Positions 8,820-42,976 of a stretch of DNA of 44,244 nucleotides are shown here, in pieces. The position numbers and the translations under genes were made by a program. Location of the stretch: positions 1 to 44,244 of the forward strand of contig JACQLN010000007.1 of NCBI GenBank assembly GCA_016204035.1, in the 5' to 3' direction. The notes under the pieces are model-generated. The model did not search any database, was not told the origin of the DNA, and saw only the letters and a program-made list of their open reading frames with translations. The first letter of the stretch is position 1, and each line of letters begins with the position of its first letter. Origin of the DNA: Parcubacteria group bacterium. GTDB taxonomy: Bacteria > Patescibacteriota > Minisyncoccia > JACQLN01.

Positions 8820-9554
8820 TTATTTGTATTTCCCCGTCCGTAAGTGCCACCAAATTTTTACCGTTTCCAGTAAAGCGTTTAAGTACCCGGATAATTTTAC
8901 GTGGCTTTGGGTATCGTTCTTCCAGTAAACCGGTATAATGCCAATTTTTAAGTTAAATTTTTTGGCCAGAGCCAAAACCTCCACATCAAAAGCCCAGCGA
9001 TTTATGGTGGTTTGGGAAAATATTTTTTCGGCCGCCTGGGCGGTAAAACCCTTAAAACCATTTTGAGTGTCCCAAATTCCCGGCACCGCCAAAAATTGAA
9101 TCAATAAATTGCCCATATCGCCTAAAAACCTTTTGAGGACGGACTGGGGCACGGCCTGGGTCGCGCCAACGGCGTCGCGGTAGTCGCGCGAACCGATAAC
9201 CACATCAAAACCGCCGTGGAATTTAGCCAGCATTTTTTCCAAGTGGCCGATGTCAGTGGAATTATCGGCGTCGCTAAAAACCCTTATCTCGCCGCTGGCC
9301 GCCAGCAGCCCTTGGCGCACCACATAGCCCTTGCCGTTATTTTCCTTGTTATTGATTATTTTAAGAGGCGCCCATTCGCGGGCAAAATTTTCGGCCACCT
9401 CGGCCGTCCGGTCTTTAGCCCCGTCCACCACCATCAAAACTTCGTACGAATAATTTTGCGCCGATAAATATTCTTTTATCCTGGCTAAAGTCCTGCCGAT
9501 TCTTTTGGCTTCGTTGTAGGCGGGAATCACAAGCGACAAGTATGGTTCCTTCAT
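8820..9554 (-). CDS. Family 2 glycosyltransferase (dolichyl/polyprenyl-phosphate hexosyltransferase-like)
   Basis: 244 aa: SLVIPAYNE, VVDGAKDRT, SDAD (DxD). Confidence 0.85.
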   Translation of the reverse strand: MKEPYLSLVIPAYNEAKRIGRTLARIKEYLSAQNYSYEVLMVVDGAKDRTAEVAENFAREWAPLKIINNKENNGKGYVVRQGLLAASGEIRVFSDADNSTDIGHLEKMLAKFHGGFDVVIGSRDYRDAVGATQAVPQSVLKRFLGDMGNLLIQFLAVPGIWDTQNGFKGFTAQAAEKIFSQTTINRWAFDVEVLALAKKFNLKIGIIPVYWKNDTQSHVKLSGYLNALLETVKIWWHLRTGKYK

Positions 9555-34799: not shown

Positions 34800-35456
34800 C
34801 TAACTCGCAAGCACAGCCGAAGAATCGTGGACGTACCAGCCGCTAGCAAGCCAGCTGCAGCGCCAGTGCCACCCGCCAGCGCGCCAGCAGAGGCAAAGAA
34901 CGCGGCGGCTGCCGAACGGACTGCGAAGTGTGGTGCCGGGGAAAAAGACGTGGGTGGTGTTGCCGTTCGTCTTCTTCCAGTGTTCTGGAATAAGATGCTT
35001 GTTTTCCCAGAGAGTCTGGAAGACTTGGGCGTCCAGTAGGATGTATTTGAAACGCTTCAGGTTCTCTTCACCTTGGATGATGTTATCACCATCACCATCC
35101 TTGAGTAAGGTAACCAGTTGGACTTGGGAAAGATCCACCTCGGTGAGGACCAGAGAACGCTTGTCCTGTTCCTCCTGGCCGGAGAGGCCATCGCCATCGG
35201 CCGGGCCCTTCCAGATGCTCCAGCCCTCGCCCAGAAACTGGACGGGGTTGAAGGGGGTGGTGCGGTCGAGGGAAATCACGGAATTCAAATATCTGATCTC
35301 GGCCAGGCCGAGCAGATACTCGCGAATGTGGGCCAACCGGTCCTCTTTACACATATGCTTTACCAAAGCCGAGTTCCAGCCCCCGGCCCGGTCCATCGCC
35401 ATTTCCAGATCGTGCACCAATCCGGCGCTGGAAAACGTGAACCTGTCATTAGCCAT
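34800..35456 (-). CDS. Hypothetical protein with a Trp/Cys/Arg-rich C-terminus
   Basis: 218 aa with the SD AGAGGAGAA. GC content is clearly above the flanking genes. I recognise no family. Confidence 0.6.
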   Translation of the reverse strand: MANDRFTFSSAGLVHDLEMAMDRAGGWNSALVKHMCKEDRLAHIREYLLGLAEIRYLNSVISLDRTTPFNPVQFLGEGWSIWKGPADGDGLSGQEEQDKRSLVLTEVDLSQVQLVTLLKDGDGDNIIQGEENLKRFKYILLDAQVFQTLWENKHLIPEHWKKTNGNTTHVFFPGTTLRSPFGSRRVLCLCWRAGGWHWRCSWLASGWYVHDSSAVLAS

Positions 35457-39505: not shown

Positions 39506-40033
39506 ATGAAAGTTAAGAAAGGTTTGGTTACAAAATTCATTCTTGAGAAACTAGCCGAGGTAAATGAGTTGGCTCTGGAAGCCATGTTCCCCAGAAACAG
39601 GGCCGAGGGCCGGCTCTGGAGAACAATTTTTGGCCTACCAGCATATTATGAATTTTCTAAAGATAATTTCTCAGCGACATTGAGCCGGCTAAAGAGCCAA
39701 GGTTTAGTGGATAAATTAGGTGGTAAAAAATATGCCAAGTGGCGTTTAACACTCAAAGGTAAAAATAAACTTGGTTCTCTTAAAATGGACTTAATTAAAC
39801 CCGATGGAATTCCACGGTTGGTGATGTACGATGTTCCCGAAAAAGAAAGAAGAAAAAGGGATTTATTAAGATTAGAACTGGTAGCTTGTAACTATCAACA
39901 ACTTCAAAGAAGTGTCTGGCTGGGTTATTCTCCCTTGCCAGAAAAGTTCATACAGAGTTTAAGAGATCTTGGTCTTAAAAATAAGGTTCATATTGTAAGT
40001 ATTAATAAAACCGGAACTTTATCGGAGTTTTAA
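39506..40033 (+). CDS. Winged-helix plus Cas2-like domain protein; paralog 2
   Basis: 175 aa. IPRLVMYDVPEKERRKRDLLRLELVACNYQQLQRSVWLG is colinear with the 2126-2659 product. Confidence 0.7.
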   Translation: MKVKKGLVTKFILEKLAEVNELALEAMFPRNRAEGRLWRTIFGLPAYYEFSKDNFSATLSRLKSQGLVDKLGGKKYAKWRLTLKGKNKLGSLKMDLIKPDGIPRLVMYDVPEKERRKRDLLRLELVACNYQQLQRSVWLGYSPLPEKFIQSLRDLGLKNKVHIVSINKTGTLSEF

Positions 40034-40271: not shown

Positions 40272-41576
40272 ATGACCAGAAAAACGCGCCGAATTTTATT
40301 GGGGTTGGCGGTAACGGCTTTTTTAATTATTGGTTTTATTCTTTTAATGTACGCCCGCGGCTACCGCTGGGATTTTAACAACAACCGTTTATTGCTTTCG
40401 GGCGCCATATATATTAAACCCCAAAGCCCCAAGGAAACGGATATTTTTATTAATAAAAAAAATACCGACGAACAAACCGCCGCTCTTATAAAAAACCTTC
40501 TGCCTTTGCGAAAATACCACGCCCAGGTGGCTAAGGTCGGTTACCAAACCTGGCAAAAAGAATTTGAAGTAACGCCCGGTTTGGTAACCGAAGCTGAAAA
40601 TATAATACTGTTTCCAGAAAAATTCTCTTTTCAAATGTTTGTGTCTGAACCCGGCCTATTGGATTTTAATATCTCTCCGGATCAAAAATTCGCGGCTGTT
40701 AAAACAAATTCGGCTAAACTTATATTTTATGATTTTTCCAACTCAACTACCACGGCCACACCATTCACCTTCCCCGACAAAATAAAAACTAAAAGCCTCC
40801 GATTTTTGGAAAACGACCGCGGCTGGTCGGCTAATTCGCAAAAATTTATTTTCTCGCGCAGCACGGCCGCCAAAACAACCTGGTACGTTTGGGACAAATC
40901 AGCTAAAAAATTAACCGACCTTACTTTGCTTTACGAAAGAAAAATTATAGTTAAACAACCCAGCGCCTCGCCTCTGCCTACTAAATTTAACCCGTCAAAA
41001 GTACTTTGGTTCGGCGGCGATGACAATCTTTTGATTCTTATGGATAGTAAACTGTTTCAATTGGATCTGGCCGACGAAACAGTGGCAGACCTTAATTTGA
41101 GCGACGTGGTTGATTTTGATTCCCGTGAAAATAAAATCATCGCCCTTAAAAATCCGGATATTTTGTTAATAATGGACTCGGCGGTGGCCAATGTATCGGT
41201 TCTGGGCCAAACCACGTTTGCGCCCCAAAAAATATTTATTGCTCCGGATGATGCTAAAATCGCCTATACCACCGCTAACGCTTTAGGCGTGATGTGGTTA
41301 AAAGACACCGGTAAACAACCCTTAAAAAAATCGGGCGACCAAGAGGTTATTTACCAATCGCTCGGCGATATTTCCAGCGTTTACTGGCACACTAAAAACG
41401 AACACTTGATGTTTCTAGAAAATCAAAACTTAAAAGTTGTGGAACTGGATACCCGCGATAAAATCAATTTAGCCAGTTGGCCTGAAACCATAACGGCTAT
41501 AAATTATTTAACCGGCGATGCCAAACTTTATTTTTTGACAGATGGCGCCCTAAAATTAGCCGAGGGGGAATTTTAA
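40272..41576 (+). CDS. PEGA-domain plus beta-propeller-like protein, N-terminal TM
   Basis: 434 aa with a PEGA-like segment (IFINKK...YHAQVAKVGYQTWQKEFEV). Confidence 0.6.
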   Translation: MTRKTRRILLGLAVTAFLIIGFILLMYARGYRWDFNNNRLLLSGAIYIKPQSPKETDIFINKKNTDEQTAALIKNLLPLRKYHAQVAKVGYQTWQKEFEVTPGLVTEAENIILFPEKFSFQMFVSEPGLLDFNISPDQKFAAVKTNSAKLIFYDFSNSTTTATPFTFPDKIKTKSLRFLENDRGWSANSQKFIFSRSTAAKTTWYVWDKSAKKLTDLTLLYERKIIVKQPSASPLPTKFNPSKVLWFGGDDNLLILMDSKLFQLDLADETVADLNLSDVVDFDSRENKIIALKNPDILLIMDSAVANVSVLGQTTFAPQKIFIAPDDAKIAYTTANALGVMWLKDTGKQPLKKSGDQEVIYQSLGDISSVYWHTKNEHLMFLENQNLKVVELDTRDKINLASWPETITAINYLTGDAKLYFLTDGALKLAEGEF

Positions 41577-41649: not shown

Positions 41650-41688
41650 TAGAAAATAAAAAAGGCCGTTCGTTGTTGGCGAACAGCC
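41650..41688 (-). terminator. Rho-independent terminator of the small-ORF operon
   Basis: - strand: GGCUGUUCG-7 nt-CGAACGGCC (one G.U pair) followed by UUUUUUAUUUU. Confidence 0.75.
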
Positions 41689-41718
41689 AGTAATTGGTTT
41701 GACTATTCATAGTCCACA

Positions 41719-41805
41719 CTAGTGCCGATCCAAATAGCGTTGCGCCCAATTAACACCTAGCACTGCCAAAAACGCGACAACACCTCCCAGTAAGTACCAT
41801 TTCAT
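41719..41805 (-). CDS. Small hydrophobic peptide (28 aa)
   Basis: MKWYLLGGVVAFLAVLGVNWAQRYLDRH. The AGGAGG SD overlaps the stop codon of the preceding ORF (AGGAGGTAAGGATG). Confidence 0.5.
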   Translation of the reverse strand: MKWYLLGGVVAFLAVLGVNWAQRYLDRH

Positions 41806-41807
41806 CC

Positions 41808-41963
41808 TTACCTCCTATCTTCGTCTTCTCTGGCAGCCGCGCGAAACGCGCGTATCATCTCCGGCGACATATCGCGAATGGCTTGATTGACGCGCTTGGG
41901 GTTAATGACCGTCGGCGCGAGTGGATGCTTTGGTTCGGACTTCGCCCGCTTTTTTCGTGCCAT
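41808..41963 (-). CDS. Small basic protein (51 aa), copy 2 of a mosaic pair
   Basis: MARKKRAKSEPKHPLAPTVINPKRVNQAIRDMSPEMIRAFRAAAREDEDRR, with the SD GGAGAG upstream. Confidence 0.55.
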   Translation of the reverse strand: MARKKRAKSEPKHPLAPTVINPKRVNQAIRDMSPEMIRAFRAAAREDEDRR

Positions 41964-41966
41964 GAT

Positions 41967-42191
41967 TCAACTCTCCTGCACCCAGATTCTTTTATATAGG
42001 TATTGAACCCAGGAAAACAATCTTATCAGAAACCACACACCGGCGAGTACTATAAGGTAGTACGCAACATAGTTGATTCCCTTTTGAACTCCACCATGTA
42101 CCAGGCCGACGCTCCAGAAGTGCAGCAACAGAAGTAGTCCGGTGAATGTAAGTAGTGATGCTAAAAGTCCAGGTTCTTTTCTTGTCTGCAT
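41967..42191 (-). CDS. Small membrane protein (74 aa, 2 TM)
   Basis: MQTRKEPGLLASLLTFTGLLLLLHFW..., with the SD AAAGGAGGA. The track ORF 41967-42356 is an over-extension. Confidence 0.6.
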   Translation of the reverse strand: MQTRKEPGLLASLLTFTGLLLLLHFWSVGLVHGGVQKGINYVAYYLIVLAGVWFLIRLFSWVQYLYKRIWVQES

Positions 42192-42208
42192 ATAAGATCC
42201 TCCTTTTG

Positions 42209-42454
42209 TCAGCTTGATAAATATAGAAAAAACACTGCGGACAAGGTTGTCGCGCAAAAGAGTTTGATATCCCCGAAGGCAGCTCCAAAAGTCCCGAAAA
42301 TCAAAAGTGTAATGAAACAATGCTCTACCGACGGGTACCAACCGGAGATAGCGCAAAATATCATAAACATGCCTGCTAGCATACCAATAGCCACCGCGAG
42401 TTTGTGATCATGGACATGAAGCCACATTTCAAACCTCTGCATCAGATAGTACAT
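42209..42454 (-). CDS. Small membrane protein (81 aa)
   Basis: From the track ORF. The SD AGGAGG overlaps the stop codon of the preceding ORF. Confidence 0.6.
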   Translation of the reverse strand: MYYLMQRFEMWLHVHDHKLAVAIGMLAGMFMIFCAISGWYPSVEHCFITLLIFGTFGAAFGDIKLFCATTLSAVFFLYLSS

Positions 42455-42457
42455 GAC

Positions 42458-42613
42458 TTACCTCCTATCTTCGTCTCCTCTGCCCGCCGCCAGGAGTGTT
42501 TTCTCGTTCTCTCGGACGAATACCCTAAGTGCTCGCTTACACTTTTCATGCTTGATGACCGCCGGCGCGAGTGGATGCTTTGGTTCGGACTTCGCCCGCT
42601 TTTTTCGTGCCAT
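42458..42613 (-). CDS. Small basic protein (51 aa), copy 1 of a mosaic pair
   Basis: MARKKRAKSEPKHPLAPAVIKHEKCKRALRVFVRENEKTLLAAGRGDEDRR, with the SD GGGAGG. Confidence 0.55.
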   Translation of the reverse strand: MARKKRAKSEPKHPLAPAVIKHEKCKRALRVFVRENEKTLLAAGRGDEDRR

Positions 42614-42636
42614 ACTCAACCTCCCTCTCTGGATTG

Positions 42637-42825
42637 CTATGGTCTGTTGGAGCGCGTAATACCGCGCGCGCGGGAAAATGCGGCTATTACAATGGCGGCA
42701 CTGATGAGTAATAAGACGATTACCGTTACCACCAAACTGGGTGCTGTTATCCCATTACCGATCAATAACCCTAACGATATACCTAACAAGCCAATCACTA
42801 CCGCGGAAGCGCCTTGTTGGCTCAT
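42637..42825 (-). CDS. Small membrane protein (62 aa, 2 TM)
   Basis: From the track ORF. AGGAGG (rc of 42834-42839) lies 8 nt upstream. Confidence 0.6.
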   Translation of the reverse strand: MSQQGASAVVIGLLGISLGLLIGNGITAPSLVVTVIVLLLISAAIVIAAFSRARGITRSNRP

Positions 42826-42926
42826 AGTGTGAACCTCCTATGAAAAAGCGTGTTGTTAAAGAACATCTTATTCTATCTATAGTTTAACGGTACTATAAAT
42901 TTCTATTTTTACAAAGTACTTGTAAT

Positions 42927-42958
42927 ACAAAAACCCCGCGATGCTTACTATCACGAGG
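42927..42958 (-). terminator. Rho-independent terminator of rpsI
   Basis: - strand: CCUCGUGAU-7 nt-AUCGCGGGG (two G.U pairs) followed by UUUUUGU. Confidence 0.7.
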
Positions 42959-42976
42959 TTTTTTGAGATTTTATTT

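Follow-up and report, generated by a model that had tools for sequence, protein, structure and literature searches.

The 44,244-nucleotide (nt) stretch analysed here, hereafter the window, is contig JACQLN010000007.1 from an ultra-small groundwater bacterium of the candidate phyla radiation (CPR, or Patescibacteria). It carries an operon of six very small genes on the − strand, located between rpsI (43510-42977) and a convergent gene coding for a protein of 434 amino acids (aa; 40272-41576). The six open reading frames (ORFs), named O1, B1, O3, O4, B2 and O6 in the order in which they would be transcribed, code for 62, 51, 81, 74, 51 and 28 aa respectively. They occupy positions 42825 to 41719, and of the 1107 nt between the start of O1 and the end of O6, 1059 (96%) are coding. 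The GC content of the small-gene operon is 0.43-0.56, compared to 0.41-0.45 in its neighbours. Only one relative with the operon was found, in an NCBI metagenome-assembled contig (GCA_964398165.1), which is referred to below as L001.

The first gene, O1 (42637..42825; this and all following features of the operon are on the − strand), encodes a 62-aa membrane protein whose C-terminal tail is basic and for which hydropathy gives two hydrophobic segments. O1 has the Shine-Dalgarno (SD) sequence AGGAGGT. It is followed by B1 (42458..42613), which encodes a basic 51-aa protein whose ends resemble those of B2, although its 21-codon core does not, and which lies inside the first of two variable slots described below. 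O3 (42209..42454; 81 aa) is coupled to B1 via AGGAGGTAAGTCATG, and belongs to a membrane family named here O3/X. O3 combines a conserved N-terminus (MYYLMQRF..HVHDH) with a highly divergent body. Hydropathy indicates three segments for O3, the third of them appearing as two overlapping windows. O4 (41967..42191; 74 aa) is a membrane protein with two segments and the SD sequence AAGGAGG, and is the best-conserved member of the operon. B2 (41808..41963; 51 aa) is again basic, and is the orthologue of the only known B homologue. The last gene, O6 (41719..41805), is coupled to B2 via AGGAGGTAAGGATG and encodes a 28-aa membrane peptide with a single segment. Both B proteins are hydrophilic (grand average of hydropathy, GRAVY, about −1.1), with a net charge of +9 for B1 and +7 for B2, and B has an acidic tail.

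The translation signals of these genes are strong. All six have a match of 5-7 nt to AAGGAGGT at the proper distance from the start, whereas just five of the window's 37 long ORFs reach 5 nt, and 29 do not exceed 3 nt. The enrichment has a p value of about 8e-5, from our own hypergeometric arithmetic on the counts. Three of the five SD-bearing long ORFs sit in other GC-rich cassettes. The small genes are also closely joined. The junctions from B1 to O3 and from B2 to O6 consist of AGGAGGTAA followed by 2-3 nt and ATG, such that AGGAGG lies inside the last two codons of B1 and B2 and is followed by TAA, the short spacer, and the start of the next gene. The B1-O3 gap is 3 nt, as is the corresponding gap in L001, and the junction from O4 to B2 reads TGA ATC ATG. 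Apart from the operon, the core genes of the window are SD-poor, and in many of them a TACAAT-like box lies 6-12 nt upstream of the start codon (for example at 9554, 12663, 14984, 27816, and 40033), which suggests that their mRNAs are mostly leaderless. The SD-led genes of the window cluster in GC-rich cassettes.

The operon is bracketed by two intrinsic terminators, each consisting of a hairpin and a U-run, and both conserved in L001. The first, at 42929..42963, closes the rplM-rpsI unit (−17.4 kcal/mol, z −5.5), and the second, at 41664..41688, follows O6 (−14.4 kcal/mol, z −4.5). Between the rpsI terminator and O1, a consensus scan found a candidate promoter, TTTATA-18-TAGAAT (42870..42899). 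Within it is a palindrome, TATAGT-N8-ACTATA (42878-42897), which occurs once in the window and could be an operator. The approximately 100 nt that follow the rpsI stop are about 94% identical between the window and L001. Because there is a terminator at each side and a promoter-like site between them, the operon looks like a transcription unit of its own, transcribed apart from the ribosomal genes rather than as the tail of their operon. The opposite strand has one weak promoter-like site (41830-41858), which is within chance expectation, and an Rfam scan of the window gave no match.

A first-pass annotation, made from the letters of the window, had proposed most of this layout. It listed six − strand ORFs of these sizes, each with a GGAGG-type ribosome-binding site, several of them translationally coupled, with a good terminator at the end and two highly basic soluble proteins that each directly precede a hydrophobic one, and all of these features are borne out by the data above. 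It also stated that one ORF in the supplied track was over-extended. This is a 129-aa ORF with a TTG start, which is an over-extension of O4; the segment containing its upstream part is missing from L001. The description of four products as membrane peptides with one or two transmembrane segments needs correction in part: there are four hydrophobic products, but O3 looks like a three-segment protein. The 434-aa neighbour had been called a PEGA-domain gene, and this was not upheld, as it has no Pfam match at E ≤ 0.01.

L001 has the same gene order as the window, with S13, S11, S4, rpoA, L17, L13, S9, and the small genes, followed on the opposite strand by the 434-aa gene. The 434-aa protein is 92% identical in the two genomes, and the synonymous divergence (dS) of the backbone is about 0.2-0.3. 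In L001, O1, O4, B, and O6 all have open frames, which differ in length only by 3-nt indels and a shifted O1 stop. Four of the six small ORFs of L001 have a clear SD sequence. O1 matches its orthologue at 51 of 61 residues, with one 3-nt in-frame indel and a ratio of non-synonymous to synonymous substitution (dN/dS) of 0.54. O4 is 85% identical to a 75-aa protein, again with a 3-nt in-frame indel (dN/dS 0.32). B2 corresponds to a 48-aa B protein (dN/dS 0.49), to which its core is orthologous with 83% identity. O6 matches at 26 of 28 residues, with seven synonymous and two non-synonymous changes (dN/dS 0.07). The flanking genes have values of 0.17 (the 434-aa neighbour) and 0.07 (rpsI).

When the ungapped blocks were pooled, the sense frame gave a pN/pS (the same ratio calculated from proportions of differences) of 0.33, with an excess of synonymous changes (p = 1.5e-5) and no internal stops. 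The antisense frame that shares its wobble positions scores alike, as expected, yet it contains 7 stops, and the other four frames contain 5-18. Judged from these comparisons, the six small ORFs are real coding genes under moderate constraint, because all six have an SD sequence, the shared frames are open with in-frame indels in L001, pN/pS is 0.33, and terminators bracket the operon. The dN/dS values of 0.3-0.5, compared to 0.07-0.17 in the flanking genes, fit an accessory or conflict locus.

By the searches made, the operon is an orphan. Scans of all eight small proteins against Pfam, PHROGs, PADLOC, and NCBIfam gave only chance-level matches, and the B profile had no match among PDB sequences. 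A search of 1.84 billion representatives with the same profile found only the L001 B protein and a repeat protein of 1101 aa (E = 2.7e-4). The latter match was judged compositional, and the protein was rejected as a homologue. A word-indexed search of 5.8 billion clustered proteins returned only the L001 match for B and for O4, and a profile search with O4 likewise gave only the O4 of L001. There was no match to B or O4 among IMG/VR viral contigs, to the 434-aa neighbour or O4 among JGI metagenome contigs, or to DNA and protein queries among 50,697 phage records and plasmid records. When genome contigs were scanned with the 434-aa neighbour, one relative of 38% identity was found, in a contig titled 'Candidatus Saccharibacteria' (L002), also next to rpsI; the L001 and L002 proteins are the only two detectable relatives of this neighbour. 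The gap between the two genes in L002 (3349-4606) holds a methylpurine-DNA glycosylase and a Cas4/PD-(D/E)XK nuclease, and not the small-gene operon. Since the only matches are in L001, and the genes in the L002 gap are unrelated, the operon is by these searches restricted to a narrow lineage. The gap distal to rpsI differs in its content and is thus a variable slot.

Two other genes of the window may be mentioned here. An SD-led gene of 218 aa with a GC content of 0.57 (34800-35456) lies between rseP and frr; it is missing from L001, where the frr-rseP gap is 236 nt, so that it is a strain-specific insertion. Two genes away from the operon, and also in L001, a 175-aa protein (39506-40033) matches the PaaX central Cas2-like domain (PF20803, E = 2.4e-13).

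The gene order of the operon is O1-B1-O3-O4-B2-O6 in the window and O1-X-O4-B-O3'-O6 in L001, where X is a protein of 68 aa with two hydrophobic segments and O3' is a protein of 83 aa. There is thus a conserved scaffold, composed of O1, O4, B, and O6, with two variable slots. Slot 1 (window 42207-42605) begins right after the shared sequence ATGGCACG, and contains B1 and O3 in the window and X in L001. Slot 2 is 28 nt of B1-like sequence in the window (41808-41835) and 290 nt in L001, where it holds an alternative B tail and O3'. The breakpoints are at 42206/42606 and 41807/41836. The unit that recurs is a B gene (48-51 aa) followed 3 nt later, and in frame, by an O3-family gene, and it occurs once in each genome. 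The first-pass order of membrane, basic, membrane, membrane, basic, membrane is therefore true of the window, but it is the state of one strain, and L001 differs. The refuting case that it had raised, in which the frames are broken in close relatives, was not found, and the conservation and dN/dS analysis that it had proposed turned out in favour of the genes. Its statement that no described system has such a layout agrees with the family and homology searches, which gave only L001.

The stretches O4/TGA ATC/B and B/TAA xTC/O3 share one reading frame in both genomes (window 41963-42195 and 42454-42613; L001 7882-8514). In L001 the O4-B-O3' stretch would read as a 209-codon frame with two in-frame stops. 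The shared frame could be a coincidence, a consequence of the coupling layout, or a trace of gene fission.

The variable membrane proteins are related to one another. X and O3' are paralogues (z 10.4), and O3 and O3' are homologues (z 11.8), mostly through the N-terminus, and X, O3, and O3' make up one fast-diverging membrane family. X resembles MAR, the start of B, joined to an O3-type body. Across both genomes the membrane proteins are 28-83 aa long, with between one and three hydrophobic segments; charged C-terminal tails are found in O1, O4, X, and O3'. As a separate observation, the N-terminus of the O3 family, MY(Y/H)LMQRF(E/D)xW(L/F)HVHxH, is kept together with its HxHxH motif despite many synonymous differences (window 42400-42454; L001 8263-8316), and HxHxH may be a binding site for a metal or a partner.

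The two B genes of the window are a mosaic. A 62-nt repeat at the 5' end (41902..41963, second copy 42552-42613), which covers the start and the first 20 codons, is 97% identical between them, and a 34-nt repeat at the 3' end (41807..41840, second copy 42457-42490), which covers the tail and the AGGAGG that serves the next gene, is 91% identical. B1 and B2 differ at 2 positions in the first 60 nt, at 40 in the middle 63 nt, and at 3 in the last 33 nt. The identity of the middle part is 35%, compared to 25 ± 6% for shuffles. The core of B1 has no known relative. The hypervariable segments of the locus are the B core and the O3 body, and the conserved ones are the B arm, which has the sequence MARKKRAKSEPKHPLAP, and the O3 N-terminus. 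The identity of the gene ends extends to synonymous sites, and for this reason it is better explained by recent gene conversion or recombination at the ends of the B genes than by selection on the protein alone. RNA structure was considered as a cause of the 62-nt repeat and was rejected (folding z +1.2 to −0.3). A diversity-generating retroelement was also considered; the changes in the core occur at all bases and not at template adenines, and the immediate neighbours contain no reverse transcriptase.

Most simply, an O3-type gene would have been lost between B2 and O6 in the window. A simple history of reciprocal loss fits poorly and was rejected, as X is nearer to the O3' of its own genome than to the O3 of the window, and for the same reason conversion within a genome or import of divergent alleles is also needed. 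The locus is present in four groundwater metagenome runs, all from one study. In the runs designated X1 and X2, window-type contigs (depth about 81-94) and L001-type contigs (about 20-37) occur together, with joints exactly at the slot boundaries. In run X3 there is a window-like haplotype with an L001-like patch of approximately 55 nt (42802-42855) over the SD sequence and first codons of O1, which indicates short-tract recombination between co-occurring strains. The depth of interior contigs, which is about 2-fold, had raised the idea of a second genomic context. This was rejected, as the loose ends fit three haplotypes, there are adapters at two ends, and the depths are means. No sign of an extra-chromosomal or second context was seen among the metagenome contigs of the locus. 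The Logan contig ends at window positions 41717 and 41640 run into the adapter letters AGATGTGTATAAGAGACAG, an assembly artefact that resembles a junction.

As read from these alignments, the operon evolves through recombination, both among strains and among the repeats that it contains. We have high confidence in this structural and evolutionary account as a whole, namely a genuine orphan operon of six cistrons, composed of a scaffold and slots, with a recurring B-O3 unit, and shaped by recombination.

What the proteins do is a more tentative matter. The reading that we favour, which is offered as possible rather than probable, is that B is the cytoplasmic partner of the O3-family membrane protein, in a pair of toxin-antitoxin (TA) or holin-antiholin type. 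The first-pass annotation had named such pairs among its candidate roles, and they are a plausible analogy. The layout of B1 and O3, and of B and O3' in L001, is that of a type II TA pair, in which the genes are adjacent, co-transcribed, and tightly coupled and the antitoxin gene usually comes first. An AlphaFold2 model of B has a disordered arm (residues 1-21) and two helices (22-31 and 34-50), with a predicted local distance difference test score (pLDDT) of 70. B looks like a partner protein because of this arrangement and its net charge of +7 to +9, although at a pLDDT of about 70 the model is compatible with several folds. Like a small pore-forming toxin or a holin, the proteins of the O3/X family, and possibly O1, O4, and O6 as well, would act on the membrane of the cell itself, with B as their cytoplasmic partner or regulator. 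The conserved, disordered basic arm of B (residues 1-20) might bind nucleic acid, such as the palindrome in the promoter or the mRNA, or else the membrane surface, and the swappable two-helix core might provide specificity for an equally variable membrane partner. The B-O3 pair would then work as antitoxin and toxin, or antiholin and holin, held at a fixed proportion by translational coupling.

Several points weigh against a B-O3 pair of this kind. Neither homology nor fold gives support for a toxin, antitoxin, holin, or DNA-binding family, and a Foldseek search of the B model against the PDB gave no match, the models having a pLDDT of only 65-70. B and O3 were modelled as a single chain, with the TAA stop read as Q. 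The result is all-helical (pLDDT 65, predicted template modelling score 0.31) and is uninformative on contact between them. Only two genomes are available, so the co-variation of B and O3 rests on two pairs. In the window B2 is intact with no O3 partner, and in L001 X has no B directly upstream. Weakly constrained small proteins would likewise show raised dN/dS, and no RNA run was found to hold the locus.

A bolder version of the B-O3 pair is on the unlikely side, and is put forward as speculation. The locus would be a new two-part conflict module that is specific to ultra-small bacteria, in which a basic protein of 51 aa, by means of its swappable 21-codon core, specifically neutralises or controls a variable membrane effector. 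Co-occurring strains would exchange specificity cassettes by recombination, with the near-identical ends of the genes as handles.

The alternative that survives best, possible if somewhat doubtful, is a harmless set of small membrane proteins. They would assist larger membrane machines as accessory subunits or regulators, as many small proteins of E. coli do, with B as a nucleic-acid-binding autoregulator or an insertion chaperone, and the differences between strains would reflect weak constraint. This would suit an operon that is chromosomal, at the same site in both strains and under purifying selection, with no match to a defence or toxin family. The unique palindrome in the promoter region, as a possible operator, and the predicted basic arm followed by two helices agree with it. 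A housekeeping helper would however be expected beyond one genus-level lineage, and the distant L002 has unrelated genes at this position. A mosaic as sharp as that of B, and slots swapped between co-occurring strains, are also more typically found at accessory or conflict loci.

It is unlikely that the locus is a cluster of peptide and immunity genes, in which B would give rise to a secreted cationic peptide similar to a bacteriocin or to a ribosomally synthesised and post-translationally modified peptide (RiPP), and the membrane proteins would provide immunity or export. B1 and B2 do have the features of such precursors, being small and cationic with a near-identical 5' end of 60 nt, like a leader, and an unrelated core of 63 nt, and the variable membrane gene directly downstream of B is placed like an immunity gene. 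But B is very hydrophilic, where the mature peptide of such a system would be amphipathic or hydrophobic, and it has an acidic tail, with no signal, double-glycine, or other known leader, and its C-terminal end is also conserved within the genome. Neither of the adjoining genes (rpsI and the 434-aa gene) is a transporter or a modifying enzyme, and no bacteriocin or RiPP transporter, modifying enzyme, or leader motif was found in the operon, in its flanks, or as a match in Pfam or NCBIfam.

The first-pass annotation had offered a phage remnant among its candidate roles, and had proposed a search of viral contigs. A prophage or mobile-element remnant, namely a lysis or superinfection-exclusion cassette beside rpsI, is now decidedly unlikely. 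Its attraction lies in the sizes and hydrophobic segments of the membrane proteins and the charged tails of O1, O4, X, and O3', which are holin-like (at least one membrane segment in a small protein with a charged C-terminal tail), a description that is generic and not diagnostic. The strong SD sequences in an SD-poor genome, together with a slightly raised GC content, hint at foreign origin, and other SD-led, GC-rich mini-cassettes of this genome are strain-specific. The proposed IMG/VR search nevertheless came back empty, as did those of PHROGs, the phage records, and plasmids. Neither a lysin nor any other phage gene, integrase, or att-like repeat lies nearby. Both strains carry the operon at the same chromosomal position, and the loose ends of the repeats in metagenome contigs are all explained by three chromosomal haplotypes.

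Very little probability attaches to the idea that O4, B, and O3 are pieces of an older membrane-protein gene that is now split or decaying. The O4-B and B-O3 junctions are in frame in both genomes, with the pieces a stop and one codon apart, but this is also the normal layout for coupling. Each piece has an ATG start, SD sequences are clear on all six window ORFs and on four of six in L001, both stops are kept in both strains with selection on each piece, and no fused homologue was found in the B and O4 profile searches. Least probable of all, and readily dismissed, is that these are chance or untranslated ORFs, since, tiny and without homologues or an RNA run as they are, they have an SD sequence in every case, fill 96% of the span on one strand, and keep their frames and in-frame indels at a dS of about 0.2 with a significant synonymous excess.

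The locus matters mainly as an example. In tiny CPR genomes, much of the difference between strains lies in unannotated mini-cassettes between housekeeping genes, and this is a clean, small case, of which annotation tracks miss about half the genes. Two, and possibly three, natural variants share one aquifer, and the variable parts are mapped to the base. If B and O3 are indeed a cognate pair, they would add a very compact module of protein and membrane effector to the TA and holin repertoire, and provide a handle on conflict within populations of uncultured episymbionts. Should they prove to be no more than small membrane proteins under weak constraint, the gain would not go beyond better annotation. 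Either way the reach is narrow, because the family is known from only two genomes.

Among known systems, the small regulatory membrane proteins of enterobacteria, AcrZ, MgrB, and MgtS, are single genes with known large partners. The proteins described here are like them in having 30-80 aa and one or two membrane segments and in being easily missed by annotation, and unlike them in being encoded by six clustered genes with duplicated modules and turnover between strains. Polymorphic toxin-immunity and bacteriocin-immunity cassettes offer a parallel for the mosaic, with a conserved 5' end of B, an unrelated core, an equally variable next gene, and recombination at conserved ends. They differ in that B is a hydrophilic protein of 51 aa with no secretion signal, its 3' end is also conserved within the genome, and the immediate neighbours of the operon are not a secretion system or transporter. 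Holins that are paired with soluble antiholins, such as T/RIII of phage T4 and LydA/LydB of P1, likewise combine small membrane proteins, several of them with charged tails, with a small cytoplasmic protein, and the operon has several hydrophobic proteins in a row. Unlike those pairs, it has no endolysin or phage gene nearby and no PHROG or phage-record match, and it occupies a syntenic chromosomal site.

With regard to TA systems, none of the eight small proteins matches a known toxin superfamily in Pfam, PADLOC, or NCBIfam, and B has no sequence match in Pfam, NCBIfam, or the PDB to the DNA-binding folds of type II antitoxins (ribbon-helix-helix, helix-turn-helix, AbrB, or Phd), although its modelled arm and two helices would be compatible with several folds. 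Type I systems consist of a stand-alone gene for a hydrophobic peptide, controlled by an overlapping or adjacent antisense RNA; the genes found here are polycistronic and have strong SD sequences. The type V system GhoS/GhoT is one of the closest analogies, together with antitoxin-first TA operons and soluble antiholins. GhoS has about 98 aa, so that B is half its size, and there are six cistrons here and not two; neither the GhoS nor the GhoT family was listed in Pfam and NCBIfam scans at E ≤ 1. In E. coli GhoS/GhoT, a membrane toxin is controlled by a protein encoded upstream (PMC4344625, PMC4010927). The operon resembles this system in that the gene for a small soluble protein is followed, in the same operon, by the gene for a small hydrophobic membrane protein, the genes being tiny, accessory, and fast-evolving.

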